Below are positions 12,870-61,215 of a DNA stretch of 64,000 bases, piece after piece. The notes under the pieces were generated by a model. The model saw only the letters and a program-made list of their open reading frames with translations. It was not told the origin of the DNA and ran no database searches. This stretch comes from Nanobdellota archaeon (GTDB taxonomy: Archaea > Nanobdellota > Nanobdellia > Pacearchaeales > GW2011-AR1). The stretch is taken from assembly GCA_020430505.1 (NCBI GenBank), contig JAGQJT010000001.1, forward strand, positions 7,629 through 71,628, given 5' to 3'. The first letter of the stretch is position 1; every line of letters starts with the position of its first letter. Both the position numbers and the translations under genes were made by a program.

Positions 12870-15304
12870 TCTAAATAAAAACCAGGCATTCCAGGTCTAG
12901 CCCTCTTAGATTTATTTTGGAGATCTATTTTATTGGGGTCTGCAACAGAGAAAACTTTAGCCTTCAAACCCAACTTATCCTCGAGAAATTTTGGATTAAT
13001 TTTATCTAATTCAAAAGGGACTGTATAAATATAAACCATTTTATAATCTCCTTTTGAAACATGAGGATTTATCAAATCAAAAATTTTCGCGTTCAAATCA
13101 ACTTCCTTCTTTTTTATTTTCAATTTTTTAGAATCAAAATCAGGCCATTCATTAATAGAAAGAAATTCCTTTTCTCCCAGTTTGCTCCAAAGTTCTTCTG
13201 TAATGTGCGGGCAAATTGGATTCAAAAGTTTCAAAGCCTTTCCAAAAGTTTCTTTAGAGATTTCCTTTTCTTCAAAAATCATATCGAATAATTCTCTTAA
13301 TTCAATGGTCGCTTTTCTATACTCAAAAGTCTCATAGTAATTTGAAACATTCTTTATTGTATTATTCAACTTAACTTCTAATTTTTCAGAATCCTTTCCA
13401 AATTTCAAATTTGAAAAATCATTAAAAACCCTATTCAAAAATCTTGAACTTCCAGAAATTCCTTTTTCAGACCAATTAAAATCTTTATCTGGAGATGCAA
13501 CTGAAACTAAAAAGAATCTCAAAGTGTCGACTCCATATTCTTTAGAGGTATCTAAAGGATCAACAGTATTTCCAAGAGACTTAGACATCTTTTCTCCATC
13601 TTCTCCATAAATAAATCCTTGATGAAACAATTTATTAAAAGGTTCTCTAAAATTAATTAATTTCATATCTGCCAAGAATTTAGTATAAAATCTGGAATAG
13701 ATTAAATGCATGCAGGCATGCTCTGAACCTCCAACATAATAATCCACAGGACACCAATCTTTTACATTATTCTTATTAAAAATTTCTTTTGAATTCTGAG
13801 GGTCACAATATCTCATGAAGTACCAGGAAGAATTAACAAAAGTATCCATTGTATCTGTCTCTCTTCTTCCTTCTCCTTTACACTTGGGACATTTTGTTTT
13901 AATCCAAGATTCGTTTGTCTCAAGAGGATTTCCTTCACCAAATTTTACTTTGTCTGGAAGTTCAACAGGCAAATCTTTTTCCTTTACAGGAACGATTCCA
14001 CACTTCCCACAATGAATAATTGGAATTGGTGTTCCCCAATACCTCTGTCTTGATATTCCCCAATCTCTCAATCTAAATTGGGTAACTCTTTTACCAAGCT
14101 TATTCTTTATCAACCAATCAGTTATCTTTTTCTTAGCCTCTTCATTTTTCAATCCATTAAAACCAGGAGAATTGACTAAATTGCCCCAATCGGTGTAAGC
14201 TCTTTTCCAGTCATGATCTTTAGGACAACCAATAACTTGTTTAATTTCAATATTGTATTTTTTTGCAAATTCAAAATCTCTTTGATCATGTGCAGGCACA
14301 GCCATAACCATTCCCCCAGCATAATCTGCAACAACAAAGTTACCAGCATAGATTGGAATTTTTTCTTCATTAATTGGGTTTATAGCGTAACTTCCTGTAA
14401 AGACTCCTTCCTTCTCCATATCCGCCAAATCTTTCTCAGAAACAGATTTCAACTTTTTCAAAAATTTTTCAACATCTTTCTTTTGAGAATCAGTTACTAA
14501 ATCCCATAATTTTTTATGCTGAGCTGAAATAACCATAAAAGTAACACCAAACAAAGTATCTGGCCTTGTCGTAAAGATATTCCAATATTTTCCATTTATT
14601 TCAAACTTTATCTCAGTTCCGTGAGATTTTCCAATCCAATTTTTTTGCATTGCTTTTGTCCTCTCAGGCCAATCTTTCAAATTATCAATTCCTTCATATA
14701 ACTCATCCGCATAATCTGTGATTTTCAAAAACCATTGTTTCAAAAATTTAGTTTCAACTTTTGACCCACACCTGTCACAATTTCCAGTCTGCGCTTGCTC
14801 ATTTGCTAAAACCGTTTCACAAGAAGGGCACCAATTAACATTTGATTCTTTTTGATAAGCCAATCCTTTTTCAAACATTTTTAAGAAAATCCATTGATCC
14901 CATCTGTAATAACTAGAATCTGCGCTTGAAATCATTCTCGACCAATCATAACTAAATCCAAGAGTTTTCTGTTGATTAATGAAATTTTTTATTGATTCTG
15001 CTGTATAATTCTTAGGATGAATTCCATCTTTTATTGCAGCATTTTCTGCAGGTAACCCTAAAGAGTCATATCCCATTGGGTGAAGAACATTAAACCCTTT
15101 CAATCTTTTGTATCTTGCGAGAATATCTCCTATTAAAAAATTCCAAGCATGCCCTATATGCAAGCCTTTTCCAGAAGGATAAGGAAACATTTCCAAAACA
15201 TAACATCTCTCAAATTTGGCTATATCCCTTGCCTCAAAAATTTTAGCTTCTTCCCATTTCTTCTGCCATTTTTTTTCAATCTTTCCGAAATCAATATCAC
15301 TCAT
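12866..15304 (-). CDS. leuS: leucyl-tRNA synthetase, bacterial-type
   Basis: Start trimmed to MSDIDFGKIEKKWQKKW (ATG 15304). MFPYPSGKGLHIGHAWNF, HPMGYDSLGLPAEN (bacterial-type signature), KMSKSLGN. Confidence 0.9.
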   Translation of the reverse strand: MSDIDFGKIEKKWQKKWEEAKIFEARDIAKFERCYVLEMFPYPSGKGLHIGHAWNFLIGDILARYKRLKGFNVLHPMGYDSLGLPAENAAIKDGIHPKNYTAESIKNFINQQKTLGFSYDWSRMISSADSSYYRWDQWIFLKMFEKGLAYQKESNVNWCPSCETVLANEQAQTGNCDRCGSKVETKFLKQWFLKITDYADELYEGIDNLKDWPERTKAMQKNWIGKSHGTEIKFEINGKYWNIFTTRPDTLFGVTFMVISAQHKKLWDLVTDSQKKDVEKFLKKLKSVSEKDLADMEKEGVFTGSYAINPINEEKIPIYAGNFVVADYAGGMVMAVPAHDQRDFEFAKKYNIEIKQVIGCPKDHDWKRAYTDWGNLVNSPGFNGLKNEEAKKKITDWLIKNKLGKRVTQFRLRDWGISRQRYWGTPIPIIHCGKCGIVPVKEKDLPVELPDKVKFGEGNPLETNESWIKTKCPKCKGEGRRETDTMDTFVNSSWYFMRYCDPQNSKEIFNKNNVKDWCPVDYYVGGSEHACMHLIYSRFYTKFLADMKLINFREPFNKLFHQGFIYGEDGEKMSKSLGNTVDPLDTSKEYGVDTLRFFLVSVASPDKDFNWSEKGISGSSRFLNRVFNDFSNLKFGKDSEKLEVKLNNTIKNVSNYYETFEYRKATIELRELFDMIFEEKEISKETFGKALKLLNPICPHITEELWSKLGEKEFLSINEWPDFDSKKLKIKKKEVDLNAKIFDLINPHVSKGDYKMVYIYTVPFELDKINPKFLEDKLGLKAKVFSVADPNKIDLQNKSKRARPGMPGFYLE

Positions 15305-15355
15305 TAAAAAATCAAGATAAAGAAGTTTTAAAAGTTGTTGTTGATTAATAAATAC

Positions 15356-15874
15356 ATGGAAAAAATACAGACTCATTTAATCGGAAAAACTTTGACTTCA
15401 AACTCTAAATCAGCTTACCAAATGTCAAAAAAAAGCTATTTTGGAGAAAAAGTAGGGGAGAAAATCCAGTATATGCCTACAGAAGCATTTTATTTATTTG
15501 AAAAAAATCAACTTGAAATCTTTCAAAAGAGCAAAAAACTTCCCAATGAGGAAATTGTAAAAAAACTTCAAAAAATAGACAAGAAATTCCAAGAAAAATA
15601 CATCGTTTTCAAAGATTTAAGAAAGAAAGGGTACATTGTAAAAACGGCTTTAAAATTCGGAGCAGAGTTCAGAGTTTATTCTAAAGGAAAAAAACCAGGT
15701 CAAGAACACGCAAAATGGCTAGTAATCACCGAAAAGGAATCAAACAAAATAAACTGGCATGAATTCTCTTCTAAAAACCGTGTCGCGCATTCAACAAAAA
15801 AGAACTTACTTTTAGGATTAATTGATGAAGAAGGAAAAGTCATTTATTATGAGATTTCCTGGATTAAGCCTTAA
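15356..15874 (+). CDS. endA: tRNA-splicing endonuclease (short homotetramer-type subunit)
   Basis: The ORF track start is TTG, so I use ATG 15356. KKGYIVKTALKFGAEFRVYSKG...HAKWLV catalytic-domain pattern. Confidence 0.8.
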   Translation: MEKIQTHLIGKTLTSNSKSAYQMSKKSYFGEKVGEKIQYMPTEAFYLFEKNQLEIFQKSKKLPNEEIVKKLQKIDKKFQEKYIVFKDLRKKGYIVKTALKFGAEFRVYSKGKKPGQEHAKWLVITEKESNKINWHEFSSKNRVAHSTKKNLLLGLIDEEGKVIYYEISWIKP

Positions 15875-21375: not shown

Positions 21376-22263
21376 ATGGTGGAGTGGTATGTTTTGTCTT
21401 TAATCTCTGCAGTTTTCTCAGCAGGAGCCGCAATTTCCCAAAAGAAAATTCTCTTCAAAGAATCAGCACTAGGATTTTCATTACTAGTGGCATTGTTTAA
21501 TTTAATCTTAGCGATACCTTTCTTTTTCTTCGTTGAGTACACTACACTAACAACCTCGGGAATATTAGTTTTATTCTTAAAATCCACATTAGGAGCAATT
21601 GCATTCTTATTTGTAATGCTTGGAATAAAAAATTTAGAAATAAGTGAAGCCTTGCCTCTTTTAGTTTTGGCACCTGGATTGGTTGCAATATTTGCATTCA
21701 TTTTCTTAGGAGAAAACATAAACAAAATAGAAATCTTAGGATTAATTCTTTTGATAATTGGAACATACCTTCTATCCTTAAAAGAAAAACAAAAAATAAA
21801 AACTCCTTTCAAAAAAGCCTTCAGTAAAAAAGGCCATTATTACATAATATTCGCTTTGATTATTTTTACCATAACTTCAATCTTAGATAAAGCAGTTTTG
21901 AACAAATTCAAAATTCCTCTAAACGCATTTATGGGTCTTCAGCATCTTTTCTTCGCAATAGTTTTCATAGGATTACTCTTTGTCACAGGAAAGAAAATTG
22001 AATTTAAATCTGCACTAAAAAATTCATGGGCATGGATTGCATTGGTTGCACTTTTTACAATTACCTATAGGTACACCCATCTTTTGGCAATAAAGAGCAC
22101 TTCAGTTGCGTTGGCCTTGTCAATAAAAAGGATTTCGGTATTTCTCGCAGTTGCCGTGGGAGGTGCATTGTTCAAAGACAAGAATCTCATAAGAAAAATA
22201 ATTGCAACGGTCATAATAATTGCAGGAGCATTATTGATAATCAACGGGCAAAACTGGTTATAA
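21376..22263 (+). CDS. EamA/DMT-superfamily transporter
   Basis: 295 aa, about 10 TM, two-fold internal EamA-like repeat pattern. Confidence 0.75.
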   Translation: MVEWYVLSLISAVFSAGAAISQKKILFKESALGFSLLVALFNLILAIPFFFFVEYTTLTTSGILVLFLKSTLGAIAFLFVMLGIKNLEISEALPLLVLAPGLVAIFAFIFLGENINKIEILGLILLIIGTYLLSLKEKQKIKTPFKKAFSKKGHYYIIFALIIFTITSILDKAVLNKFKIPLNAFMGLQHLFFAIVFIGLLFVTGKKIEFKSALKNSWAWIALVALFTITYRYTHLLAIKSTSVALALSIKRISVFLAVAVGGALFKDKNLIRKIIATVIIIAGALLIINGQNWL

Positions 22264-23077
22264 GCGAAATTCCTTTCGCCCTTTTAGTCAAACCTTTTTT
22301 TGCTTCAGGAATATCTTCCCTGAGGGATTCTTTCAAATAATTCAAAACTTTTTTCCTTCTTTTTCTCAAACTCTCTGTTGAATTCACACAAGGTCCACCA
22401 ATACAAGCCCCGACACAAAAATTACAATCTAAAAATCTGGTATTTTTATCAGGCTTATCAAGGAATTTCATCACTCGACTTATTCCATCAATAACTTTTA
22501 TTTCTTTTTTCTTGAGGACATTTTTCAAATGAGCTGTCTTAGAAAGCCCTCCTCCAAGAGGATAAACTTTGGTATAATCATTGTAAAATTTATCAAAGTG
22601 CATCTTTTTCTTTGCATTTAAATTAATTTTATTTTTTTCAAAAAGAGATTTTAATTCTCTGTAATCTACAACATAATCAACAAATTTGGATTTCTTCGCT
22701 TCTTCTTTTTTATAATTACAAGGAGAAATAAACACAGTCTTATGTTTAGGATATACCTTTTTACAAATTTTGGACATGGCAATCATCGGACTATCAACTT
22801 GAATTAAGTTTTTTTTATATTGAGGGTATTTATCCAAAACAACACTAACAACTCCAGGACAAGCAGTAGAAATAAAAAAACCCTCTTTTTGTAATTCTTT
22901 GTAATAGGCCTGATTAACAAGTTTTGCTCCAAAAGTCAACTCAACAACCTTATCAAAACCAAATTTTTTCAAGCCGTAAATCATTCCAGGATATGGAAAA
23001 TCCACGACGAAACTTGGAGCAACCATTGCCACAAATTTTCCTTTCAAAGGGAATTTCAGTTTACGATCTTTTTTCAT
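22241..23077 (-). CDS. minimal [FeFe]-hydrogenase-like protein (H-domain only)
   Basis: 278 aa. FISTACPGVV (cf. TSCCPGW), FISPCNYKKEEA (cf. MPCxxKxxE), FCVGACIGGP (cf. CxGGCxxGGG). N-terminal VAMVAPSF...LKKFGFDKVVELTFGA. Confidence 0.6.
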   Translation of the reverse strand: MKKDRKLKFPLKGKFVAMVAPSFVVDFPYPGMIYGLKKFGFDKVVELTFGAKLVNQAYYKELQKEGFFISTACPGVVSVVLDKYPQYKKNLIQVDSPMIAMSKICKKVYPKHKTVFISPCNYKKEEAKKSKFVDYVVDYRELKSLFEKNKINLNAKKKMHFDKFYNDYTKVYPLGGGLSKTAHLKNVLKKKEIKVIDGISRVMKFLDKPDKNTRFLDCNFCVGACIGGPCVNSTESLRKRRKKVLNYLKESLREDIPEAKKGLTKRAKGISLITSFAR

Positions 23078-27080: not shown

Positions 27081-27163
27081 GCGGGGATGCCGGAGTGGTC
27101 AAACGGGACAGGTTTAGGACCTGTTAGCTTATGCTTACCAAGGTTCAAATCCTTGTCCCCGCA
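27081..27163 (+). tRNA. tRNA-Leu (anticodon UAG), long variable arm
   Basis: Acceptor GCGGGGA/TCCCCGC, anticodon stem ACAGG/CCTGT, loop TTTAGGA, 14-nt variable arm, T arm CAAGG-TTCAAAT-CCTTG. Confidence 0.88.
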
Positions 27164-27233
27164 TATATTCTGTAACTATTATCTAAAAGTAACAAAACAA
27201 AAGGTTTATAAAATAAAGAAATTCTAGAATATT

Positions 27234-28241
27234 ATGAGAAAATCACTTAAAAACAAATTAATAGACACTGCAAAAAAAGTTGGAAAAACCTTGTTAGTAG
27301 GGGGAATAGCAACAGCACCATTTACTCCTGCATTCTCCCAAGAGAGGCAAGCTTTAGAAAATACCCAATTTTACCAAGGAGAAGGATCAATCTCAAGTTC
27401 AGATTACCCTTATTACGAACCAACAAAAGAATTGAATGGAGTGGAGTATATTTTAAATGAATGGGGAGGAGAGAGATATATCACTCCAGAAAGAGAAATA
27501 AATACTGCTTTAAGTGAAGGTAGTAAAGAAGCACAATGGAAAGAAAAATATGTTTTAAGAAAAGTTGGAAAAAACCAAGATAGCATTCAAATTGAAAATG
27601 ATAATACTAGAAGAAATTATACTACTAAGAAAATTGAAAATGCGATGCATTCAAAGAGACACAAGAAAAATAGAAATTCTAAAGAAGAAATCCTTCCAGA
27701 AGGAGTTAAAACTGAAAAGGATTTTCCTTTTGGAAACTACAAAACAAATATTTTATGGGGGGATCAAGAATATTTAGTTTTAGGAATTCAAAATGACAAT
27801 AATTCAAAAACTTTAGAGTTATATTTTATCAAGAGAGATGGAATTTCTTGGACAATTGATCAAAGTACTGGAAATATTTGGGTAAAAAATACAAAATATG
27901 GAATTGAGAGACCTTTCTTAGTAGAGGGAGAAAATAAAACAAATTCAATTTATTCTCCTCAAAAAGGAAATTTAAATTCATTAGACATGTATGATTTTCT
28001 AAATAGAAAACCTTTCGGAACTTCAAATGGAAATAATTCTTCTACAAAATCAGTTAACAGAACAAAAGAAAAAACATACGACGCAAGAAAAGGAGATAAT
28101 CTAATTGGAATTGCAAAATCTTATGGAGTAAATCCAAAATCAAAAGAATTCAAAGATTTTTTAGATTTAAATGAAATTACAAATCCTAACGAGATAATTG
28201 CTGGAAAAACCTACAAGATTCCTCCTTCTTGGAAAAAATAA
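27234..28241 (+). CDS. exported protein with C-terminal LysM domain
   Basis: 335 aa. N-terminal hydrophobic signal-like segment. C-terminal YDARKGDNLIGIAKSYGV...LNEITNPNEIIAGKTYKIP matches the LysM consensus. Confidence 0.75.
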   Translation: MRKSLKNKLIDTAKKVGKTLLVGGIATAPFTPAFSQERQALENTQFYQGEGSISSSDYPYYEPTKELNGVEYILNEWGGERYITPEREINTALSEGSKEAQWKEKYVLRKVGKNQDSIQIENDNTRRNYTTKKIENAMHSKRHKKNRNSKEEILPEGVKTEKDFPFGNYKTNILWGDQEYLVLGIQNDNNSKTLELYFIKRDGISWTIDQSTGNIWVKNTKYGIERPFLVEGENKTNSIYSPQKGNLNSLDMYDFLNRKPFGTSNGNNSSTKSVNRTKEKTYDARKGDNLIGIAKSYGVNPKSKEFKDFLDLNEITNPNEIIAGKTYKIPPSWKK

Positions 28242-28245
28242 TTAA

Positions 28246-31200
28246 TCATCCTTTACTAGCTCTATTTGGCTTATTCTGTTCAAACCATTGATAAACTGCA
28301 TCTTGAGTTTCTTGATTAATTCCCTGTCTTGAAAAAAATTCATTAAGAGTAATGACTTCATAACCAAGATCCACATAGTGATAAACATCTTGAAAATCAA
28401 TCTTCAAATCATTTGGATTTACATAAAAACTAGAGGAATCTCCAAAACCTTGCTGAAAAGATTCTGAAGAAGTAGGAAGAGTCCCATCTTGCCATTTCCA
28501 ACCAGCTAATTCATAAAACTGCATTAGCTTATCATATTCCTCTTGAGTATAAACATTAACAGCCACATTATCCATAGCAGTTAAAGTAAAACTAACATCT
28601 GGAATTGTACTTCCAGAACCACTTACAGCACCCTTAGAAATTAAATAATCAATTACTTCTTGATTTTCTTCTTCAATTGCATAATCCAATGCAGTTTTGC
28701 CTTCATTATCTACGGCATTTACATTCGCACCACTTTCTACAAGGTATTTAACAATCTCGAAATAGTCCAAATAAACAGCTGTAATTAAAGAATTCCTTCC
28801 CTTATAATCATCCTCTCTCTTTGCTTCAATATCTGCACCATTCTCCACCAAAATTTTTACAGTATTCAAAGAATTTTGATCAACAGCCCAAAGTAAAGGA
28901 GTAAAACCATTCTTATTGGTGGTCTCTATATTAGCACCTTTTTCAAGAAGGTATTCAACAATTTCCCAATTATCATATAAGCTAGCCAAATGTAAGGGTT
29001 TTAGCCCCCCTCCATCACCAGAGCATTCTGAATCCACTGAAACTCCTTGCATAACCAAAGACTTAACTAAATTTAGGTTTCCTTCTATGGAAGCATCACA
29101 TAATTGATCAACCTTTGAACCAGAATTTCCTCCAATCCCATTCGCTTTGTTTTCTTCCAACATTTGTTTAACATCAGTAGGAATATCGTTCTCCCTATTA
29201 AACCATCCAAAAAAAGCCCCTTCCCCTTTAACATCAGAACATTGATCCTCTGTCAACAAATCTTGATTACAAATTTCGTCTATAAAATCTGTGTTGACTG
29301 CAGAATCAGAGTAAGTCCCTTGCAATTGACCTGCTCTCTTTATTGCAGAATCATAATTCCACACTGTAACTAAAGGTTGATACTCATGCCCTTCTTCAAG
29401 ATAAGAAATAAGTTCTGGAACAATATCCTCTCCATTACGTCCTTTTGACTTAAGTTCATTATACTTTGATACTTCAAGAAGGCCATCTGTTCTCAATTTC
29501 TCAAGCCCAAAATTTAAATCCCCTGATTTCGCTCTTTCTAAATCAAAATAATTTCCTTCTCCAATTAGTTCTGCTTTCAAGATTGCCGAAGGCACACCCC
29601 ATTTACCTGCATTAACTTCATTATATCTTACAATCAACATTTCCTTAACATCATCAAAATTATTTGCTCCATTTGCCAATTTTTCAAAAAAGTTTGAACC
29701 TCCTTTAACATCTATACACTGTGCTTCCGTCAAAATATATTCACTAGAACTCACAACAGAAGACCTGCAAATTTCATCAATAATCTCTTTATTTTGAGGT
29801 CTATCCTCGTCAGTATATTTCCCACTTAAAGGTCTGATCTGTTCTATTGCAGTTTCAATAGTCAAATCCTTAAAATAGTTCTCTCCTTCATAAACATTAG
29901 GAAGGCCTTCTAGATTTAAAGAAAATAAATATTTTGCACCCTTCACAAAGTCAAAATTATCATCTTTAATTTTCTTGATTGCCGCCTTCTCCCTTGCAGT
30001 AAACTTTGGATTATTATCTAAGGTATCTTCATTTCTTAAAGAAGAGTAATATTTATCTCCAGACCTTTTAAATACCCATTCATCCTCGACAAATTCAAAA
30101 GAGACTTTTTTATAATTGCTAAATCCACCTACCTCAAAAACTTTTTTATCATCCATTCTCGTACTCTGAGAATCTAGATTATTTCCCAATTCTACAGCTT
30201 TATTTATCAAAAGAGATAAACCCTCATCATAATTTTTGTCTTGTAATTCAAGAATTATTTTTGAATATTTGTCTCTAGGAGTTTTTCTTCCATAACTATC
30301 TTCAAAAGTTTTCGTATCCACCCATTCAACAGTAATATACTCATTAACCAATCCAGAACCAGAAACATCTAAATCAAGAGTTGTGCCAACAACATCACAA
30401 TTCATTGACCAATGCCATTCATTATTAAAAAATTTGAAACACATGTTCCTCATTTGAATCTTTGAAGAGGTACTAGGATCAACAACATTGTCCAAAGCCT
30501 CATTCAAATCTTCTGTTTCTTGAGCGACTTGTTCTTCCCCATTAATATCTACGCCATCTCCTATAGGCTCCCAATACATATAAACTGGGTGAGAATTGTC
30601 TCCAAGATTAAGAGTAAATTTTCCAAAGATCCTATTTCCTTTTTCATCATGCTGGTTCCAATCAAAGACTTCTGCAACATAATTTTCTTCGTCAATCCAT
30701 TTAAGAAAGATTATATTATGAGGAGTCTTATAATCTAAAGCAATAGATAGGATATCTCCTTCTTTTAATGCTCCCAACTTTTCAGAAGCAGAAAGATCCA
30801 AAGTAGATTTTTGCTTATTTAAAGTACAACTCTTCATAGGTTGATCATTGGCTTGAAAGATAATTGCACCATAAGCATTTTCAGTTTCACTTATTTTGAT
30901 AATATTTCCTGAAAGAGAATAAGATTTTCCTTTACCATCAGAATAAACACAATTTTTGTCCACATTTGCATATTGATAAATTGCTAAAACAGAATCATGA
31001 CAAGTAATCACACCACTATTATCACAATCCCCAATCTCAGCCTTATCGACAATTCTTCCATTAAAATATTCTACAGCAGCCAAAACTCTCTCACGAGGAT
31101 TAGAATTACCCAAAATTTCTTTTTTCTTTTCCTCTTTTTCCTTAGCAGCCGCAGCTTCTCTCTCTGCCTTTTGTTGCGCTAAAACTTTCTGGTATTCATT

Positions 31201-34200
31201 AAAAGATCCCTTAGTCAAGTCTCTATAAGCATTTCCTCGGAGATAATATAAATAAGCCTTTTGTGAGTTAAAAAACATCTTTCCAACAATTGAATCAATA
31301 AAATTTATTCTCTTGATAGGGTTAGATTCTAGTTTCAATGTTTCAACAGCTTCTTTAAATTGCCCCTCTCCAAAGTAATCAGTATTGTTAGGATTATTTT
31401 CTAAATTATCTTGGAAGTATTTTTCTAATTCACTTAAAGTTTGACCTTCTGTGTAGTTAAAAACAACTGCATCACCCACACTACTTTTATCTAACCAACA
31501 TCTTATTTCAGTGTCACCACAATATCCCACATCCACCCACCTTTCAGGATTGGAACCAGAACCAGGATTATTTGAAGCGCAAATTCTTTGAATCCCTTGG
31601 TTGTAAATCTTTGGATCAATCAAATCACTCGCAGTTTCTTCAAGATTCGGATTCAATAGATTGTAGAAACTAGCTGTTCCAGAAATACAAGCCTTTTGTG
31701 TCTTTATGTCCGTTTGAGTTGCTTGTTGCTTTACATATTGATCTTGAACATAATCTATAGCAAAACTTGTTGAGACTTCTTGGAAACCACATTCCTCTTG
31801 ATCATTTACTCTTATACACAACTCTTTAAATCCTGAAGGTGCAGTAAAATCAACTGTTTGAGTTTCATAATCTCCTTTAGGGATATAACCCGAATCAACA
31901 TTTCTTACATTACCGAAAAGAACCCCATCTTGATAATAAGAAGACTGTGAGCTTTCTCTTAAATAAACTTTATAATATGCCCCCCTATCATTTCCAGCAT
32001 AAATATGGTAAAAAACCTTGTAATGAGAACTTGGAGGATTAGTAACAGTACTATAGGGAATTTCTTCAAATTTGCCTGTGAATTGAGGAGGTGAATCTGG
32101 CTCTGTTAGAGAATCTAGAATACTAACTCCTCCAGGATAAGTTGCGGAAATAAAAGTTTTACAAGCCGCAGTTCCAACCTCTTCAGAGCTTCTTGCTTTA
32201 AATGCCTTGTATGAATCAGCTGCATAATACTGTGTAAAATAAGAGACAGAGTCTTGTGCATTTTGCCAAGCAGATTGAACCCCCAAATATTCTCCTCCAC
32301 CATGAGAATTTTGACCTAGTACAGTGCTTAAAATTTTTGGGACCGCCAAATTTGCTAAAGGCAATGCTTGTCTCCAAAAAAACTCGCACATATATACACT
32401 ATGAATCTCATCACATATTCCAACAGTTTCCCCAGTTTCCAGATTAGTTTGCAAACAATCTCTGTAAGAATCCATAACAGAAACCCACCCATCTAAACCT
32501 GCTTTAACCCCACTTAAACAAACAGGGACATAAATCCCTTCTTTAGCGTTTGGCAAACATAAAGCAACACTTCCAACGATTCCCGTTTGTATAACATCTT
32601 TGACGGGATAAGCTCCTCCAAAATCACATCTACTTGAAGGACAAATTACAGGATCACAAACATTAAATAAAACTTTACAATCTGAAGGAGACATAAAGTC
32701 AGTACACTCTACAGAGGGCACATTTGTAGCAGGACTTCCAACTCCAACAATCCCTCCATCTGGAAGAGTAATTCTTTTAACCCCAGACTTATACTGTCTT
32801 GATGCAGCTTCTATAGCACTAACTGCTTTGTTAACCAATCTAGAAGATTCAGATTCAGTCAACCCAGGAAATTGATTATAAGGCTGCCCAGTTCCCAAGT
32901 TCACTAATTCACAGACATCATCTTTTTGATTTGAATTAAATTCTTCATAGCCATTTGGACCAACATTACAAAGCCAGAAACTATTGATTCTTCCTGAAAC
33001 ATCATAACTATTTATTCCTCCCAAAACTGCAACTTTCTGCTGCACATAAGCATACCATCCATTATCTTTATCAAAAGGCACAACTGCAGGCAATCCTTGG
33101 TAAGGCTCTTCTTCATAATATCTCACAATAACATCTTTTTCTCCTGGAGAAGGATTAAACTTATTGTTATAACTAGTGGAATCTAAAACTCTGAAATCAA
33201 TCTTAAGTAATTTATCTAACCTCGTTTTATCGGTAACCCTAGTTCCAGTAAAGTCATAAATCAAGTAAGAAGAAGTGCCATCATTTTCTATATGTTGTTT
33301 AATTGGATAAACGCCTGTTTTTATAGAATCATCCAAAATGAACAAGAAAAATCCATCACTTGTTTGAATTCCTTGAACCGGAGTCGATAAAGGAAGATTA
33401 TATTCATTATCAATAACCGAACTCCATTTATCAAGAGTATTTCCCTTATAATATTCTTGAATTCTTCCTTCTTCTGTTGTTACATAAGAAAAATCAGAAG
33501 CAGAGATTCCTGTTCCTTGAAGAGCATCATTTATTTGAAGGAAACTATCGGAATTTTCTTTCAATCTAGAAGACAAATCATAAAGTTTTTTCAGATATTT
33601 TTCATCTCCGGTTTGCTGATATAATCTATAGTAAAGGTCAAAATTTTTCAAATCTTCCAAATTGTAATACCCCTTGTTAAAAGAGTCTTCTCCAGAAAAA
33701 ATTGTTGACATATCGGAAGTCAGAACATACTGGCTAGAATCATCCGGATTTTGAATTGAACCAATATTAACATTGGAAATAACTGACTGGGCATATTCGC
33801 CCACAAAACTTTCTGTGTCAACAACATTATCTCCAAATATTTTTAGTTGATTCGGAATAAGATGTTTATCTTGAATATTTTTTATGTTCTCATTTTGAGA
33901 TTTTATCGTCTGGTAAACAGAATTCACTTCCTTGTTTATTGTGTCTGCGTTCTGGAAATAACAATTTTCTTGTGAAGCATAATTACCTGCAGAAACCTCA
34001 CCAGCACAATGTTCTGTCCATCCTCCACTACTCCTCATAACCATTTGTCTTGCAATTGATTTCCCATCAGCATTTTGGATAAAATTCTTTACAGTTAATG
34101 CTGCGCCAACTCCTAAACAAGCCGCTTTCATATCCTTAACAACAACACCTAAATTATCTGAAAACTTCTTCCAATCTTCAACTTGCTTATTTAATTTCTC

Positions 34201-36423
34201 AACAAGACTTTCTACCTTTTCAGGAGCTAATTGAATTGCTCTCTTTTCAATACCAATGTTAAAATTAAAATCAGAATAAGACCTTTGATATTTTTGTTCA
34301 GGGATAATTGAAATTTTTGCTTGTTTTTTAAGATTTATTTTGGTTACTTTTATCACGACATTATCTCCTAGAGTCTTAGGATCATTTAAATTAAAATTTC
34401 TTTCTATGCTTACAAACCTATTGTAAAAGGAATCGTTAGCTACATAGACCTTTAAAGTTGCAGAATCAATATCCAAACCAGTAAGTTCTATGTATTCCCC
34501 AGAAGAGATGTTAATTGTTCGCCTTTCATCTTTGTCCAAATTAAATGAGGTTGTAGTTCCATCAGAAAATTTAACCAATACAGAAACCCCATAATCTTCA
34601 AAAGAAGGTTCATCAATCTTAACAAGAGAAATACTATGCAACTCCCCGTCTATCAAAACATCATATTTTGAATTTGAAGAGCTATAGAAAGAAACATCTT
34701 TTTCACATCCAACCGAATCCACTAATTCGGGATATAATTCTTTAAACTCGCTACAAATTTCAAGAACCTCAAAAGATTGACCAAGGAATTTAGCCAAATC
34801 AATTTTTTCCTTAAAAGATTCAAGAGACAATTCCTGACTTTCATAAGTTTCGTCAGGATAGTCTTCAATAACTCTTTCATAGCTTTGCTTGGATTCTCCA
34901 TAATATTCCGAAGTATTTATATTCAAATCCAAAGTGTCCCCAATTCCAAGTCCATTAAGAATTATAATGTGATCTTTAATTTCATTTAAAGAGCTACTTT
35001 CTCCGACGACGATCTTGATTACATCATCGCCAGTTCTTATTCCTTCTTCAATATCTAAAATATCCCCCTTAAGAGTTCCAAAATCTTCTTCAAAACTTTC
35101 AACAAGAGTCAATCCCTTATCAGTAGCCCTATCTTTGTAATTGGCCATTTTTTCAAGATAATCATATTGGGATTCACTAATGACCTCTCCAACTTTCTCA
35201 GGAGTTAAGTAAATATACGCCTGAAGATCCTTGGGATTATTTGAAGAACCAGAAAACTTTGCATACCCTAAGTACATGTGCTTTCCCTCATCTTCAGAAT
35301 ACCCAAGATAATCTCCTACATGATAGTTCTCTTGTTGATCATCAATAGTTAAATTTACTTGAGGAGAAATGAATAGAGTTTTCATGGCATCTGATTCCCA
35401 AAAAGTAGAGTCATCCTCCTTGCAATAAACTTCAACTCTTTGATTTATTCCATCTTTTCCGATACTATTCTTAACAATATGGCATCTATTATCTAAAAAT
35501 TTATCTCCCTCTTGAAGAGTGTAATATTCTGAATCAACTTTCAAAACAGCTCTTGTGTCGGGATTAACAAGCTCATCCAATTTTATTTGCAAACCCGCAA
35601 AACAATAAAGCCCAGGCAAGTAAACAACACTTGAAGAAGCTCCCTCCGCCAATCTGAAGGAACCATATTTTCTTTTCTCATCAGTACGTCCTTCAAAAGA
35701 ACCTCTATAAACATCTGAATAAACAACTATTGTTGCAGAATTACTATCTACTCCTTCAACAGCCAAATAGCCTCTTCCATCCCAAAAACTATATTGATTC
35801 TTAATCTTGTCCCACTCAGAATAAGACATTTCTGGAATGAAAAAAGTATTCTCTCCAATTCCAAAAGAATTTTGGATATCATACCTTATTGTAGCATTAA
35901 TAGTTCCCTTAACAAAATCTGGCATTGAACTTTCATTTTGATTTTGTCTTAACATTACAACAGCATAACCAATATTTTCATAAGTAGGATTTTCAACTTT
36001 ATCTGAACTTCCATAAAATCCAAGAAATTGTGAAGATAAAGCTGCTTTGTTTGGGATAAATCCGATTGTACGGACTTCTCTAGGATAATTTCCTCCAAAA
36101 GTTATTGAATCTATTTGAGAAACATCAATAAAAGGATTAATTTTAGTGGCTCTTATAGGACAAAAAACAGGAACATCCTGTTCTTCTAACAAATCACTTC
36201 TAACTGGAACAGGAGAGCATCCTGTAGCATCTATTTGAAGAAGAAAATCCTGACTTTGTTCACACATACTTGTATCCCACTCCAAGCTAGGAGAACCAAA
36301 AGAGCTATATGTTCCCCCATAGTAATATTTAGGGTTTGAAGCAGAATAACTTGCAGCTAGGGAGACCAATGAAAAGAAAACTCCCAACAAAATCAAAAAT
36401 AGAATCAAATTATTTTTTTTCAT
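28246..36423 (-). CDS. giant secreted surface protein (2,725 aa) with Cys-rich core and C-terminal ankyrin repeats
   Basis: One uninterrupted 8.2-kb ORF. Sec-type signal MKKNNLILFLILLGVFFSLVSLAAS. Ankyrin repeats at 28627-29112. Most of the length is unassignable by eye. Confidence 0.9.
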   Translation of the reverse strand: MKKNNLILFLILLGVFFSLVSLAASYSASNPKYYYGGTYSSFGSPSLEWDTSMCEQSQDFLLQIDATGCSPVPVRSDLLEEQDVPVFCPIRATKINPFIDVSQIDSITFGGNYPREVRTIGFIPNKAALSSQFLGFYGSSDKVENPTYENIGYAVVMLRQNQNESSMPDFVKGTINATIRYDIQNSFGIGENTFFIPEMSYSEWDKIKNQYSFWDGRGYLAVEGVDSNSATIVVYSDVYRGSFEGRTDEKRKYGSFRLAEGASSSVVYLPGLYCFAGLQIKLDELVNPDTRAVLKVDSEYYTLQEGDKFLDNRCHIVKNSIGKDGINQRVEVYCKEDDSTFWESDAMKTLFISPQVNLTIDDQQENYHVGDYLGYSEDEGKHMYLGYAKFSGSSNNPKDLQAYIYLTPEKVGEVISESQYDYLEKMANYKDRATDKGLTLVESFEEDFGTLKGDILDIEEGIRTGDDVIKIVVGESSSLNEIKDHIIILNGLGIGDTLDLNINTSEYYGESKQSYERVIEDYPDETYESQELSLESFKEKIDLAKFLGQSFEVLEICSEFKELYPELVDSVGCEKDVSFYSSSNSKYDVLIDGELHSISLVKIDEPSFEDYGVSVLVKFSDGTTTSFNLDKDERRTINISSGEYIELTGLDIDSATLKVYVANDSFYNRFVSIERNFNLNDPKTLGDNVVIKVTKINLKKQAKISIIPEQKYQRSYSDFNFNIGIEKRAIQLAPEKVESLVEKLNKQVEDWKKFSDNLGVVVKDMKAACLGVGAALTVKNFIQNADGKSIARQMVMRSSGGWTEHCAGEVSAGNYASQENCYFQNADTINKEVNSVYQTIKSQNENIKNIQDKHLIPNQLKIFGDNVVDTESFVGEYAQSVISNVNIGSIQNPDDSSQYVLTSDMSTIFSGEDSFNKGYYNLEDLKNFDLYYRLYQQTGDEKYLKKLYDLSSRLKENSDSFLQINDALQGTGISASDFSYVTTEEGRIQEYYKGNTLDKWSSVIDNEYNLPLSTPVQGIQTSDGFFLFILDDSIKTGVYPIKQHIENDGTSSYLIYDFTGTRVTDKTRLDKLLKIDFRVLDSTSYNNKFNPSPGEKDVIVRYYEEEPYQGLPAVVPFDKDNGWYAYVQQKVAVLGGINSYDVSGRINSFWLCNVGPNGYEEFNSNQKDDVCELVNLGTGQPYNQFPGLTESESSRLVNKAVSAIEAASRQYKSGVKRITLPDGGIVGVGSPATNVPSVECTDFMSPSDCKVLFNVCDPVICPSSRCDFGGAYPVKDVIQTGIVGSVALCLPNAKEGIYVPVCLSGVKAGLDGWVSVMDSYRDCLQTNLETGETVGICDEIHSVYMCEFFWRQALPLANLAVPKILSTVLGQNSHGGGEYLGVQSAWQNAQDSVSYFTQYYAADSYKAFKARSSEEVGTAACKTFISATYPGGVSILDSLTEPDSPPQFTGKFEEIPYSTVTNPPSSHYKVFYHIYAGNDRGAYYKVYLRESSQSSYYQDGVLFGNVRNVDSGYIPKGDYETQTVDFTAPSGFKELCIRVNDQEECGFQEVSTSFAIDYVQDQYVKQQATQTDIKTQKACISGTASFYNLLNPNLEETASDLIDPKIYNQGIQRICASNNPGSGSNPERWVDVGYCGDTEIRCWLDKSSVGDAVVFNYTEGQTLSELEKYFQDNLENNPNNTDYFGEGQFKEAVETLKLESNPIKRINFIDSIVGKMFFNSQKAYLYYLRGNAYRDLTKGSFNEYQKVLAQQKAEREAAAAKEKEEKKKEILGNSNPRERVLAAVEYFNGRIVDKAEIGDCDNSGVITCHDSVLAIYQYANVDKNCVYSDGKGKSYSLSGNIIKISETENAYGAIIFQANDQPMKSCTLNKQKSTLDLSASEKLGALKEGDILSIALDYKTPHNIIFLKWIDEENYVAEVFDWNQHDEKGNRIFGKFTLNLGDNSHPVYMYWEPIGDGVDINGEEQVAQETEDLNEALDNVVDPSTSSKIQMRNMCFKFFNNEWHWSMNCDVVGTTLDLDVSGSGLVNEYITVEWVDTKTFEDSYGRKTPRDKYSKIILELQDKNYDEGLSLLINKAVELGNNLDSQSTRMDDKKVFEVGGFSNYKKVSFEFVEDEWVFKRSGDKYYSSLRNEDTLDNNPKFTAREKAAIKKIKDDNFDFVKGAKYLFSLNLEGLPNVYEGENYFKDLTIETAIEQIRPLSGKYTDEDRPQNKEIIDEICRSSVVSSSEYILTEAQCIDVKGGSNFFEKLANGANNFDDVKEMLIVRYNEVNAGKWGVPSAILKAELIGEGNYFDLERAKSGDLNFGLEKLRTDGLLEVSKYNELKSKGRNGEDIVPELISYLEEGHEYQPLVTVWNYDSAIKRAGQLQGTYSDSAVNTDFIDEICNQDLLTEDQCSDVKGEGAFFGWFNRENDIPTDVKQMLEENKANGIGGNSGSKVDQLCDASIEGNLNLVKSLVMQGVSVDSECSGDGGGLKPLHLASLYDNWEIVEYLLEKGANIETTNKNGFTPLLWAVDQNSLNTVKILVENGADIEAKREDDYKGRNSLITAVYLDYFEIVKYLVESGANVNAVDNEGKTALDYAIEEENQEVIDYLISKGAVSGSGSTIPDVSFTLTAMDNVAVNVYTQEEYDKLMQFYELAGWKWQDGTLPTSSESFQQGFGDSSSFYVNPNDLKIDFQDVYHYVDLGYEVITLNEFFSRQGINQETQDAVYQWFEQNKPNRASKG
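28627..29112 (-). other. ankyrin-repeat region (about 4 repeats) of the giant protein
   Basis: GLKPLHLASLYDNWEIVEYLLEKGANIETTNKNGFTPLLWAV...VKILVENGADIEAK...VKYLVESGANVNAVDNEGKTALDYA. Confidence 0.85.
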
Positions 36424-38276
36424 TTAAAATTTACCTCAACTTTTTTATTTTCGTACAAAATGTAATTGTTTTGCAAATCATCAAGAGAGTTCACCTCGGG
36501 AAGACTTTCAAAATTCAATTCCACATAATTTGAATTCTTTAATTCACTTTCTGAAATGAAATAACTTGTAGAACCTCCTCCAGACAAAACCTGTGAAACA
36601 ATTTGCTCAGGAATTGTGATCTCAAAACACTCTTGTTTTTTGGCCCCGAAAAAAGCCCCAATTCCAGTTGCTGGAACATCAACACATTGTTCTTGAGTTG
36701 TTTCTGCAAGGCTCAAAGAAGAATTTTTGTAGGTGGAAATTTGTATTTCATAATCTCCTTCTGAAAGCACCACTTCCTTGCTATTTGGGATTAAGATTGT
36801 TTGTGAATCTTCCAAAGAATTAAAAGTAACAATAGCATTTCCATTGTAAACTTGTCCATCTTTTTTCAATACAATTTCTTTAGAATATTCTTTATCCAAG
36901 AAAATGGAAATGCTTCCCTCATTTACACTACTATAAATTGAACTTGAATCCTTATAACCATCAGCAGTTATAATCAACTCTCCATTTACACATTGAGGCA
37001 AGTTTGCAATTAAAGAACCATTAGAAACTCCCGTTTCCCCTATAGAACATTTATTTCCAGAACACTCGTAAGAGATACTTGCTTCCACAGGACTACCTTG
37101 ATAATCTGAAACACTTATAGAAGTTTTCGAAAAACTATCCGAACAAATGTCTATTTGATTCCCTTGCTGAGCAATCCCTTCTGCAGGCTCTCTAGGGAGA
37201 TTTCCTCTTATCACAACTGCAACAGGAAATTGAAAAATTTCATCACCACTATAAACTTGGATTAAAGTTGGATAAGCCAGATTATAAACAAAATGATATG
37301 TAGTATAACAAAAACCCAAAATTCCTAACCCTTGTTGATTCCCAACAGGATCTGCAATCAAAAGAGAACCTTCACTAGGGTTAACTTCAAAACTATACGG
37401 CCAATCTTTAGAATAAATAAATCTAAAATTATTTTTTACTGCACTATCTACTTTAAAATAATCATTTTCTGTACCCTCACCTTTTATTGAAAGAGTATTA
37501 ATCTCTATTCCTTCCTTTAAATCTTCAAAGATTTTCTCTGCTCCCCAAGTCATAGGAGAACAACTTATTTCAACGCCATCTACAGGAGCATATAACCTCA
37601 TAAAATCAACAGCATAATTTTCTAAGAATAAACTTTTCTGTTCTTGATTATATAATTCAATAGCGTCGTCGTATAGTTCACCCAATTTAGAATCAACAAC
37701 TTTGCTATGTTTTTCAAGGACATAAGAAGACTCTCCTTTTGAAATAGACAATTTCAAATCAATATCAACTATTATTTCACTATTATCAATTTTAACATCA
37801 AGATTCATGCCATTTAAATCCCTCACCACCCCATAACCTTGGGAAGAATATTCTTCAAAATCACAATTTTTTATTTGATTTGATAAATATCTTTCCAATT
37901 CCCCCTCCATAAAACTTTTTGTTGGAACTTGTTCTTTTGCAATATTTCCTCCTGAAACATAATACCAGTAAGGAATTTCATTTCCCACAAAATCCAAATG
38001 CGAAGAAAAAGGCATATAAGTAGATCCTGATTCAAATTCAGTAGGATAAATGTACCCTGCACCCGAACCCAAAAGGCGAGAACCTACTAAAACTTTTTCA
38101 TTAACACAATCCAAAAAACTATTTTCTATTGGACTTACAAAATCTGGAACACTGCCTCCTATCCTCGTGGTGTTCCTAAATAAAAAATAAGCTCCAACAA
38201 TTGCTATAATTATTATAGCAATTATAATAAAAACTGTAACTTGCCCTCTTTTTCCTCTCTTTAACAACATAATCAA
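36420..38276 (-). CDS. exported protein with class III (type IV pilin-like) signal peptide, coupled to the giant gene
   Basis: 618 aa. N-terminus MIMLLKRGKRGQVTVFIIIAIIIIAIVGAYFLF (K/R-G-Q plus hydrophobic helix). Its stop overlaps the giant gene start (ATGA). Confidence 0.75.
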   Translation of the reverse strand: MIMLLKRGKRGQVTVFIIIAIIIIAIVGAYFLFRNTTRIGGSVPDFVSPIENSFLDCVNEKVLVGSRLLGSGAGYIYPTEFESGSTYMPFSSHLDFVGNEIPYWYYVSGGNIAKEQVPTKSFMEGELERYLSNQIKNCDFEEYSSQGYGVVRDLNGMNLDVKIDNSEIIVDIDLKLSISKGESSYVLEKHSKVVDSKLGELYDDAIELYNQEQKSLFLENYAVDFMRLYAPVDGVEISCSPMTWGAEKIFEDLKEGIEINTLSIKGEGTENDYFKVDSAVKNNFRFIYSKDWPYSFEVNPSEGSLLIADPVGNQQGLGILGFCYTTYHFVYNLAYPTLIQVYSGDEIFQFPVAVVIRGNLPREPAEGIAQQGNQIDICSDSFSKTSISVSDYQGSPVEASISYECSGNKCSIGETGVSNGSLIANLPQCVNGELIITADGYKDSSSIYSSVNEGSISIFLDKEYSKEIVLKKDGQVYNGNAIVTFNSLEDSQTILIPNSKEVVLSEGDYEIQISTYKNSSLSLAETTQEQCVDVPATGIGAFFGAKKQECFEITIPEQIVSQVLSGGGSTSYFISESELKNSNYVELNFESLPEVNSLDDLQNNYILYENKKVEVNFK

Positions 38277-38321
38277 AAGATGAAAAATATCTATATAAAT
38301 ATTTGTTTAATCAAGAAAAAA

Positions 38322-38510
38322 CTATGCCCTTCTTCGAGTTACTTTGAAAGAGAATAAACCTGCAATCACTAATAAGATTCCCCCTACAAACATTATCCAA
38401 GTATTTGCTTTGTTTAAAAAATCTGGAATGACCCAATAACTAAGACCCGCATTAATAAAATATGCTCCAAAAACAATGTAAACAACAAAATAAATTAATC
38501 CCTTCCTCAT
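38322..38510 (-). CDS. small two-TM membrane protein
   Basis: 62-aa ORF, two hydrophobic helices, first gene of the minus-strand surface cluster. Confidence 0.5.
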   Translation of the reverse strand: MRKGLIYFVVYIVFGAYFINAGLSYWVIPDFLNKANTWIMFVGGILLVIAGLFSFKVTRRRA

Positions 38511-38549
38511 AGAAATAAATATAAAATATTCTATTTAAATATTTCTAAA

Positions 38550-38621
38550 GGCCCCATAGTCCAGTGGTTAAGACGCATCGCTGACTTCGATGAAGCTCAA
38601 GTTCGATTCTTGATGGGGCCA
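38550..38621 (+). tRNA. tRNA-Val (anticodon GAC) with unusual U at position 37
   Basis: Acceptor GGCCCCA/TGGGGCC, anticodon stem CATCG/CGATG, loop CTGACTT, T arm TCAAG-TTCGATT-CTTGA. Confidence 0.75.
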
Positions 38622-47838: not shown

Positions 47839-48255
47839 ATGAAAAACAAGACAAAATACACAATAATCTTAATTTTAATGTTAGTTGCAACAGCAATGTC
47901 TCTTGTTTTATCCTTCATGCCTCTTGAACAAGCTTGCGGAGAAAATGGAAGCTGCACAATAGTTCAAACTTCAAAATATGAAACAACATTCGGAATAAAG
48001 ACCGCCCATATTGGACTAATTGCATTCCCAATTTTAGCATTAATAGCAATCTTTGAATTGAAAAAGAAAAGAAAATATCAAAGAAAATTACTCAATTTGG
48101 GCATAGTTGTCGGAAGTGCATTCGCTCTTTATTTTCTTTATCTTCAATTTTTTATACTTAAAGCAATTTGCAAATACTGTTTGGTTGCAGACATTGCAAC
48201 ACTTATAAGCTTGGGAATAATTCTTTTCTGGGAAGAAAAAAACATAATAAAATGA
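47839..48255 (+). CDS. vitamin K epoxide reductase (VKOR) family protein
   Basis: 138 aa, 4 TM. Loop Cys pair CGENGSC. Active-site CKYC at the start of the last helix. Confidence 0.7.
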   Translation: MKNKTKYTIILILMLVATAMSLVLSFMPLEQACGENGSCTIVQTSKYETTFGIKTAHIGLIAFPILALIAIFELKKKRKYQRKLLNLGIVVGSAFALYFLYLQFFILKAICKYCLVADIATLISLGIILFWEEKNIIK

Positions 48256-58643: not shown

Positions 58644-58676
58644 AAGTTTTTATAATTAAAAAACTCCATTCAGATA

Positions 58677-59380: not shown

Positions 59381-59381
59381 T

Positions 59382-60663: not shown

Positions 60664-60723
60664 AAAAATCTCAGTAGAATTTCCTTTATAAATTTTATAA
60701 CGCTGCAGAATATATATTAAAAA

Positions 60724-61185: not shown

Positions 61186-61215
61186 TAAATCTAAAGTAAA
61201 AAAAGAAATTTAAAA

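Follow-up and report, generated by a model that had tools for sequence, protein, structure and literature searches.

A conserved operon pairs a giant secreted protein carrying exchangeable C-terminal modules with a pilin-like partner in a Pacearchaeales archaeon and may be directed at bacterial cell walls

Few uncultivated archaea are as widespread as the Pacearchaeota and Woesearchaeota and, to our knowledge, the SLT domain found in some of their large proteins is so far the only hint of bacterial hosts. The searchable text of the closest earlier description, that of 'large murein-like lytic transglycosylase proteins' in these lineages, gives a size of up to ~3,000 amino acids (aa) and a predicted extracellular location (Castelle et al. 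2021, PMC8204110). Action of such SLT-bearing proteins on bacterial walls has been proposed in that paper and by Vigneron et al. (2022, PMC9723730), and a further paper holds another proposal for SLT-bearing members (mBio 2024, PMC10936187). Peptidoglycan hydrolases of a haloarchaeon have been shown to kill bacteria (PMC12352652), and in Saccharibacteria type IV pili mediate episymbiosis (PMC9894109, PMC11623550). Here we analyze a stretch of 64,000 nucleotides (nt) from the metagenome-assembled genome of a Nanobdellota archaeon (deposited as Nanoarchaeota, a DPANN lineage; Pacearchaeales, GW2011-AR1; assembly GCA_020430505.1, contig JAGQJT010000001.1, positions 7,629 to 71,628 of the forward strand)—the window hereafter—with a three-gene minus-strand operon for a mini membrane protein, a pilin-like partner, and a giant protein of 2,725 aa. 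On balance, we lean towards reading this set as a pilin-anchored adhesin/hydrolase assembly of Pace-/Woesearchaeota-type DPANN archaea that is aimed at bacterial cell walls.

Many homologs exist for each of the three minus-strand genes. To follow them as a set, we took one genome per species; relatives were present in 369 species, and 80 fetched loci together with two earlier ones gave the 82 loci analyzed throughout. A giant bearing the conserved core came immediately after the partner in every one of the 57 loci whose downstream sequence reached at least 5.2 kb. The ATGA by which the partner's stop codon overlaps the giant's start codon was identical at 37 of 62 partner-giant junctions, and a further 12 junctions lay within 0-48 nt. 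The initial annotation had expected the two genes to be made together and to be conserved as a pair across related genomes, and both expectations held up. It had also counted the 62-aa membrane protein with the set; of the 76 loci with enough room, 63 have a homolog of that protein upstream in the same orientation, with the conserved pattern YF.N ... PE ... W ... GGiL. Likewise, its calls for both tRNAs, the four genes, and the overlap agree with ARAGORN, Rfam, the list of open reading frames (ORFs), and the sequence itself (Table 1). One length shifts: the 618-aa partner does exist as an ORF from the TTG at 38276, but the ATG at 38270 is the likelier start, and its 616-aa product equals the deposited protein P0001. 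Chance cannot account for the 8.2-kb ORF of the giant in DNA with a guanine-plus-cytosine (GC) content of 31-33%.

The genomic setting is shared as well. A tRNA-Val(gac) gene lies at most 2 kb upstream in 40 of 64 related loci, nearly always divergent as in the window, and in 26 of 42 a tRNA-Leu(tag) gene follows the giant within 2 kb. S3Ae was found in 62 related loci and TFIIB in 40, the latter being the next gene after the giant in 25 of 47. Two long contigs repeat the arrangement in full, with a partner homolog, the 4-nt overlap, and then a 2,175- or 2,334-aa gene, flanked by S3Ae on one side and by TFIIB or RNase Z on the other, matching the window. Because these flanks recur across species, the tRNA bracket, which had been singled out as a special unit, is better described as old gene order than as an insertion scar; the operon is an old core locus rather than an island.

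Several smaller features of this locus and its relatives deserve mention in their own right. On the minus strand of the intergenic stretches 38277-38321 and 38511-38549, six consecutive T come after the stop codon of the 62-aa gene, and TATA-like boxes (TTTAAATA and TTTATATA) lie ~25-30 nt 5′ of the start codons of the 62-aa and 616-aa genes. These features hint at two promoters and leaderless or short-leader mRNAs, and could also arise by chance at 31% GC. A soluble ORF of 44-45 aa (MKKYLLLIEDEKLW...) sits between the mini membrane and pilin-like genes in 37 of the 82 related loci (e.g. L001 9874-10008 and L003 9874-10011) and is absent from the window. In the closest relative, a DDE transposase gene (L085 14934-15578) lies ~3 kb from the giant, beside S8e and TFIIB. 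Finally, a contig titled 'Bacillota bacterium' (L021, DATKUW010000047.1) carries the archaeal operon, with a 616-aa homolog and a giant, and is probably mis-binned.

The partner has over 1,500 homologs, nearly constant in length (608-625 aa; ~50% identity); the named ones come from Pacearchaeota, Nanoarchaeota or unclassified archaea, and none bears a Pfam domain. Its N-terminus, MLLKRGKRG/QVTVFIIIAIIIIAIVGAYFLFR (the slash marks the predicted cleavage site), has the make-up of a class III signal, with a short charged start, K/R at -2, G/A at -1, and ~20 hydrophobic residues. Across the family this region reads M-K-x-K-R-G/Q-V-T-I-F-I-I-I-A, with ~21 hydrophobic residues and then Arg/Lys, and G9/Q10, T12, and F14 are invariant (G-Q-x-T-x-F after K/R). 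As these invariant residues lie at the cytoplasmic end of the membrane helix, recognition by a peptidase fits better than a plain anchor, in line with the class III signal proposed initially. Downstream of the signal and N-terminal helix (aa 1-32), the protein comprises an alpha/beta domain (aa ~45-360) and three beta-sandwich domains (aa ~380-616). An AlphaFold2 (AF2) model with a predicted local distance difference test (pLDDT) score of 76.6 has helices at 9-32 and 46-69, the alpha/beta part to ~360, and the three beta-sandwich domains at 380-616. Foldseek searches with this model returned just generic Ig-like arrays of Gram-positive pilins and adhesins at a template modeling (TM) score of at most 0.16, the family profile (A1) found no credible match in the PDB, and hhalign detected no domain common to the partner and giant families. 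Short paralogs of 240-277 aa, which combine the N-terminus KRGQVTIFIIIA with the first ~200 residues of the 616-aa family, occur in related genomes (L063 18714-19541; L057 271-1101 and 5199-5927; L056 4777-5595; L077 5672-6430). The one in L063 lies directly after the giant; the window holds none.

A matching peptidase is encoded in the same genome. The window ends within the gene for a prepilin peptidase, and contig L088, which is identical to window positions 58214-64000 and extends beyond the window end, carries the rest of a pilus-like cluster (L088 5312-14821). On the far side of the window end are some ten small ORFs whose N-termini look class III-like (e.g. MKNKRG/QGLSTSTIILL and MRFRRG/ELSTQQIVVLII), a 722-aa ORF with no Pfam match, and a 761-aa T2SSE ATPase (PF00437). 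Given a prepilin peptidase, pilin-like ORFs, and a T2SSE ATPase, the genome should be able to process and assemble pilin-type proteins. The cluster lies ~25 kb from the giant locus, with the ATPase and the small pilin-like ORFs 25-38 kb away. The earlier remark that no pilus or secretion gene is nearby thus stands within ~25 kb on each side save for SRP54 and FtsY, 5-8 kb away, and ends where the pilus cluster begins at 63525.

In the giant itself, strong hydrophobicity is confined to the Sec-type signal at the N-terminus; a C-terminal anchor is absent. Homologs keep the n-h-c layout of the signal, ending in small residues, which agrees with the Sec signal initially assigned. Against 119 homologs the window giant shows 38-47% identity, with 96-100% of the query covered wherever a homolog is not split; the scaffold shares 40-45% identity with giants of other species, rising to 55-64% in the core (alignment A5), where 17 cysteines are invariant (aa 1240-1642). 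A profile built from this core gives the window giant 1,045 bits and, with clustering at 50%, retrieves at least 1,100 representatives, of which 967 have E<=1e-30. The 150 listed matches all exceed 900 bits, and the full-length ones among them measure 1,700-3,800 aa with the core starting ~1,000-1,300 residues in. Judged by these scores, the giant family is sharply bounded. Its size, and the fact that the family has already been flagged in the literature, also mean that the giant is not an orphan.

An AF2 model of aa 566-1765 (pLDDT 71.9) resolves the scaffold into a beta-sandwich (586-698), a long helical region (734-968) opening with a 51-residue helix (734-784) in which an Ala/Gly-rich stretch is conserved, then beta-rich sequence (978-1175), a Cys-rich bundle of helices (1190-1422), a second beta-sandwich (1447-1551), a small Cys-rich alpha/beta domain (1553-1645), and closing helices, the last of them long and charged (1719-1764). 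Foldseek with this model against the PDB and BFVD gave nothing below E 1e-3; its top matches were to diphtheria toxin, at noise level (E 0.012, probability 0.18, TM-score at most 0.13). The whole-family profile (A2) had no PDB sequence match even at E<=10. Apart from the ankyrin repeats and the LysM domain, none of the four proteins of the block matches anything in Pfam, NCBIfam or PHROGs, in keeping with the more than 2,000 aa that the initial annotation could not assign to a family, and the ~2,300 conserved residues of scaffold and partner are without a detectable relative of known structure. Elsewhere in the window, a VKOR homolog (47839-48255, plus strand; E 7e-21) is likely to be an extracytoplasmic disulfide-forming enzyme, so support for many disulfides in the giant is possible.

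Past aa ~1750 of the giant, conservation collapses. The tails that follow the core are 47-1,298 aa long (median close to 510; 1,027 aa in the window giant), and their modules recur across giants in differing orders. A few giants are almost scaffold-only, with tails of 47-126 aa; nearly all giants have at least one extra C-terminal module. According to precomputed Pfam assignments, 33 of 120 listed homologs bear a murein hydrolase or remodelling domain in the tail. Counted domain by domain over the same 120, we find SLT lytic transglycosylase (22), YkuD (2), Peptidase M23 (2), VanY (2), DUF1615 (2), DUF2272 (2), Glucosaminidase (1), Amidase_3 (1), ankyrin (4), LRR (3), beta-helix (1), a Cys-rich repeat (1), and a pre-toxin HINT domain (1; P0227, E 4e-12). 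The window giant has no SLT domain, and at E<=1 Pfam and NCBIfam yield ankyrin families alone. Its ankyrin array scores above the Pfam cut-offs (Ank_2, 107 bits, E 7e-31; Ank, Ank_3, Ank_4, and Ank_5 likewise), confirming that part of the initial annotation; NCBIfam Ank effector models cover the ankyrin repeats alone and fall far under their own cut-offs.

Directly behind the scaffold lies a Cys/His module, in which an invariant Cys43 opens the conserved stretch and is followed by GDxLS, an invariant His137, and a conserved Asp (alignment A4)—an order that we take to resemble that of NlpC/P60-type enzymes. The module, frequently the final domain, is present in ~43 of 119 database homologs and in 15 of 50 species-representative giants. 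It had no Pfam match in 20 members, no PDB profile match, and no tblastn match in phage or plasmid collections, and hhalign found no match between it and the DUF2272 regions of P0200 and P0229. From its motifs it is a candidate hydrolase only. Modules M2 and M3 occupy different positions in other giants, and their profiles (A6 and A7) have no Pfam match; A6 had no credible match in the PDB either. We also considered M3 (aa 2186-2350, window 29374-29868) as a GT51 monofunctional peptidoglycan glycosyltransferase, since the alignment of its profile (A7) spans the GT51 motif 2-3 region; at a PDB E-value of 0.03 and a domain E-value of 0.18, and with no Pfam backing, we rejected this match as noise. 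The last 134 aa of the giant gave nothing below E 0.6 in a phmmer search of the PDB.

Table 1 Features of the giant locus and the start of the pilus-like cluster, in window coordinates.
Feature	Position	Strand	Description	Basis
tRNA-Leu(tag)	27081-27163	+	3′-side conserved flank of giant gene	ARAGORN, Rfam
LysM-domain protein gene	27234-28241	+	335 aa; convergent with giant gene	ORF list, Pfam
Giant gene	28246-36423	-	2,725 aa; deposited name 'ankyrin repeat domain-containing protein'	ORF translation; identical to P0121
Giant, C-terminal ~125 aa	28249-28623	-	Essentially unique among listed homologs	Homolog coverage ~1 sequence
Giant, ankyrin repeat array	28624-29193	-	aa ~2411-2600	Pfam Ank_2
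Giant, modules M2 and M3	29134-30450	-	M2, aa 1992-2172; M3, aa 2186-2350, second partial copy to ~2430	Recur in other giants
Giant, Cys/His module	30562-31122	-	aa 1768-1954; invariant Cys, His, Tyr, Lys, Trp; putative papain-like (NlpC/P60-type) hydrolase by motif	Alignment A4
Giant, conserved scaffold	31174-36351	-	aa 25-~1750; beta-sandwiches, long helices, Cys-rich core, ending in charged helix aa 1719-1764	Conservation profile, AF2
Giant, most conserved core of scaffold	31474-33123	-	aa 1101-1650	Alignment A5
Giant, Sec-type signal peptide	36352-36423	-	aa 1-24; K-rich n-region, hydrophobic core, SLAA/S	Hydrophobicity, homologs
ATGA overlap	36420-36423	-	Partner stop / giant start	TTT AAA TGA / ATG AAA AAA read in sequence
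Pilin-like partner gene	36420-38270 or 36420-38276	-	616 aa (ATG) or 618 aa (TTG)	ORF list
Mini membrane protein gene	38322-38510	-	62 aa; two TM (transmembrane) helices; first gene of set	ORF list
tRNA-Val(gac)	38550-38621	+	Divergent from operon; 5′-side conserved flank	ARAGORN, Rfam
Prepilin peptidase gene, 3′ part	63525-64000	-	Peptidase_A24 (PF01478), 283 aa; runs past window end	Precomputed Pfam

On the opposite strand, the LysM gene converges on the giant gene, with 4 nt between the two stop codons. Its LysM domain (aa 285-330, nt 28086-28223) was called correctly from the start (Pfam E 2.2e-5, 24.8 bits against a cut-off of 20.9), and the LysM region of a PHROG endolysin matches the protein at E 6e-7. 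The initial annotation held that the block encodes exported proteins only; the signals of the giant and the partner agree with this, whereas for the LysM protein a weakly hydrophobic N-terminus suggests export. Nor did the gene prove to be a general member of the locus, as the 82 related loci yielded no homolog of the window protein. In L085 (11687-12535, minus strand) and L008 (18999-19415, minus strand), the same convergent slot is taken by proteins that end in a LysM domain, the L085 protein, from the closest relative, being unlike the window protein outside that domain; our jackhmmer search of related loci for LysM domains was insensitive and missed this known L085 case. In other loci, unrelated signal- or lipoprotein-like ORFs follow the giant in this slot. 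The LysM gene is a lineage-specific accessory of one sublineage.

These elements can be joined into a working model. The partner would be made with its class III signal and cut after Gly9 by the genome's A24 prepilin peptidase; its hydrophobic N-terminal helix would then either keep it in the membrane or insert it into a type IV pilus-like filament, with its alpha/beta domain and three Ig-like domains pointing outward. The giant would be translated from the same mRNA, as the 4-nt overlap suggests, and exported by Sec. Having no anchor of its own, it would then be held at the surface, or on the type IV filament, by the pilin-like partner, with the two-helix 62-aa protein as a possible assembly or anchoring factor. 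The disulfide-rich scaffold of ~1,750 aa would form the constant part and, beyond the long charged helix, an enzyme or binding cassette would be exchanged, which in many relatives appears to be a bacterial peptidoglycan hydrolase or remodelling enzyme. In the window giant this cassette would consist of the Cys/His module (possibly a papain-like amidase or peptidase), two further modules, the ankyrin repeats, and the unique end. In this way the assembly would most likely bind, and locally open, the wall of the bacteria that the archaeon lives or feeds on. Because murein is missing from this group of archaea, the many murein hydrolases among relatives suggest that the targets are bacterial, and LysM proteins encoded beside the giant in three species count in the same direction. 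The cassette of the window giant may mainly be a binding device, given its ankyrin repeats, with the adjacent LysM protein supplying murein binding.

Several points weigh against this model. No recognizable peptidoglycan hydrolase emerged for the window giant from Pfam, NCBIfam, PDB, and phage searches, and about three quarters of the listed homologs have no annotated murein-related domain. Moreover, the scaffold is the most conserved part and yet had no detectable relative by PDB profile or by Foldseek against PDB and BFVD, the pilus cluster is not adjacent to the locus, and a physical complex of the three proteins is itself presumed. We know of no host for any member of these lineages, and ankyrin and LRR cassettes would be compatible with non-bacterial targets, too. 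Surface or pilus location, a bacterial target, and catalytic activity of the window giant are thus what we infer from gene content, signals, and relatives. The host-interaction role advanced in the initial annotation draws support from the murein-degrading or -remodelling tails of relatives and from the published proposals; the lack of a recognizable murein hydrolase in the window giant tells against it.

A bolder version, about which we have considerable doubts, would make the operon an undescribed contact machine, in which the partner is a pilin-type adaptor that mounts the giant on the membrane or a type IV filament, the disulfide-locked scaffold itself recognizes a conserved component of the bacterial envelope and opens that envelope, and the cassette tunes the device to particular hosts. 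If true, the whole Pace-/Woesearchaeota radiation would have here its organelle for attachment and feeding, and archaeon-on-bacterium episymbiosis would gain its first molecular handle. Whether or not this bolder version holds, the constant scaffold, the coupled pilin-type protein, the usual mini membrane protein, and the swappable ends make a defined, testable apparatus out of a loose SLT annotation, with targets for antibodies, cryo-electron tomography, pull-downs, and heterologous activity tests. Cassette type can serve as a marker, and its correlation with co-occurring bacteria could predict hosts.

Other explanations fit parts of the same evidence. Perhaps the strongest of these, possible though not likely, is an S-layer-like envelope pair, with the partner as membrane-anchored stalk, the scaffold as lattice, and the C-terminal enzymes as decorations; it is partly compatible with a pilin-anchored assembly. 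The pair is single copy, occurs in every assessable related genome, and has a core housekeeping neighbourhood, and a large secreted subunit beside a membrane-anchored partner rich in Ig-like domains is what such a layer would look like. The almost scaffold-only giants point the same way, as does the lack of any further S-layer candidate in that part of the window which was scanned. S-layer proteins, however, are usually fast-evolving and Cys-poor, whereas the core is conserved like ribosomal protein S3Ae (55-64% versus 66%) and has its 17 invariant cysteines, and extra C-terminal modules are present in nearly all giants. S-layer proteins have no universal sequence signature; no lattice-forming or S-layer family, which the initial annotation had named among the findings that would overturn it, matched in Pfam, NCBIfam, PDB profile or Foldseek searches. 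A polymorphic toxin for contact-dependent competition, with a constant N-terminal delivery region, interchangeable C-terminal toxins, and immunity genes, would explain the constant N-terminus and shuffled, variable C-terminus, the pre-toxin HINT domain of P0227, and the frequency of hydrolase warheads in the family. We consider it unlikely: the giant is not followed by any small gene on its own strand, the LysM gene that comes next here being convergent; the HINT domain is confined to that one homolog and missing from the window giant; the cassettes are wall hydrolases and binding repeats, not typical nucleases or deaminases; and each locus has one copy, with no orphan cassettes nearby. Since archaea without murein would not need an immunity protein against murein hydrolases, the immunity-gene argument is a blurred one.

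Less likely again is a membrane-active scaffold, a pore or fusion device that would open a conduit into the host once the cassette has breached the wall. Its long helices, including the 51-residue helix with its conserved, hydrophobic Ala/Gly-rich stretch (aa 760-778), the conserved helical Cys-rich bundle followed by a beta-sandwich, and the noise-level matches to diphtheria toxin, itself a helical translocation domain plus beta-sandwich, could be read this way; yet there was no significant structural or sequence match to a pore-former or fusogen, no scaffold segment has the hydrophobicity of a transmembrane helix, and the helical bundle is modelled with moderate to low confidence. Insertion of a horizontally acquired island at a tRNA gene, finally, would account for tRNA genes on both sides and for a LysM gene that lies between giant and tRNA-Leu in this sublineage alone. 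It is so improbable that we rejected it on synteny and composition: the GC content of the tRNA-bracketed block is the same as outside it, the same tRNA-Val, tRNA-Leu, S3Ae, and TFIIB genes flank the operon across many species, no integrase or direct repeats were noted, and tblastn with the giant core found no match in phage or plasmid collections.

The neighbourhood of the locus in the window is one of housekeeping genes (TFIIB, S3Ae, S8e, L44e, RNase Z, GINS, SRP54, FtsY, and several aminoacyl-tRNA synthetases), some with features of their own. For the leucyl-tRNA synthetase (12866-15376, minus strand), PF13603, the Pfam model of the LeuRS editing domain, gives E 5e-63, a domain that we take to be typical of the bacterial type. 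The alanyl-tRNA synthetase (8959-10659, plus strand) has just 566 aa, with no C-terminal domain past tRNA_SAD. A 278-aa protein (22241-23077, minus strand) contains an iron-only hydrogenase large subunit C-terminal domain (E 1e-41) and is syntenic in L003.

How does the operon compare with systems already described? In bacteria, PilY1/PilC are large non-pilin adhesins carried by the minor pilins PilVWX. Here, too, a large Sec-exported non-pilin protein is encoded beside a pilin-type gene and, as for PilY1 and the pili of Saccharibacteria, the genome has a prepilin peptidase and an assembly ATPase and host attachment by an ultra-small episymbiont is the proposed role. We found no sequence or fold similarity of the window proteins to PilY1 or bacterial minor pilins, however, and at 616 aa the partner is far larger than usual pilins, with the pilus cluster 25 kb away. 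SlaA/SlaB of Sulfolobales likewise combine a large anchorless secreted subunit with a smaller membrane-anchored beta-sandwich partner. SlaB is anchored through a C-terminal helix, in contrast to the N-terminal class III-type helix of the window partner; there is no sequence or fold match, and the core of the window giant is highly conserved, Cys-rich, and joined to a putatively enzymatic cassette.

Polymorphic toxins and MARTX proteins share with the giants a constant N-terminal region, shuffled C-terminal modules, and, in one homolog, the pre-toxin HINT domain. As in those systems, a potential protease, the Cys/His module, sits between the scaffold and the other modules of the window giant, but a role as release protease does not fit a module that in homologs is often the very last domain; besides, the window locus has no immunity gene, and RHS, filamentous haemagglutinin or RTX repeats are absent. 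SPEARE is another giant secreted multi-domain protein of a DPANN symbiont with proposed host contact. Compared by description, it belongs to another lineage, the Nanohaloarchaeota, with another domain set and archaeal hosts (context in PMC6642349 and PMC11291902).

Closest of all are the SLT giants of the literature, which come from the same lineages and fall in the same size class. The window giant aligns over ~1,750 aa with the SLT-bearing P0164, P0171, and P0234 (each 'transglycosylase SLT domain-containing protein' at NCBI), and its family is probably fam00969 / Module 98 of PMC8204110, as matched by description. That literature defines its family by the SLT domain, which the window giant does not have; given scaffold homology to SLT-bearing members, we file it as a variant and not as a transglycosylase. 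The searchable literature, which covers the field incompletely, held no description of the scaffold, the exchange of cassettes, the partner, the 4-nt overlap, the mini membrane protein or the tRNA/S3Ae/TFIIB setting. As far as we know, the operon-level picture is thus new, though the protein family at its center had already been flagged by DPANN genomics.

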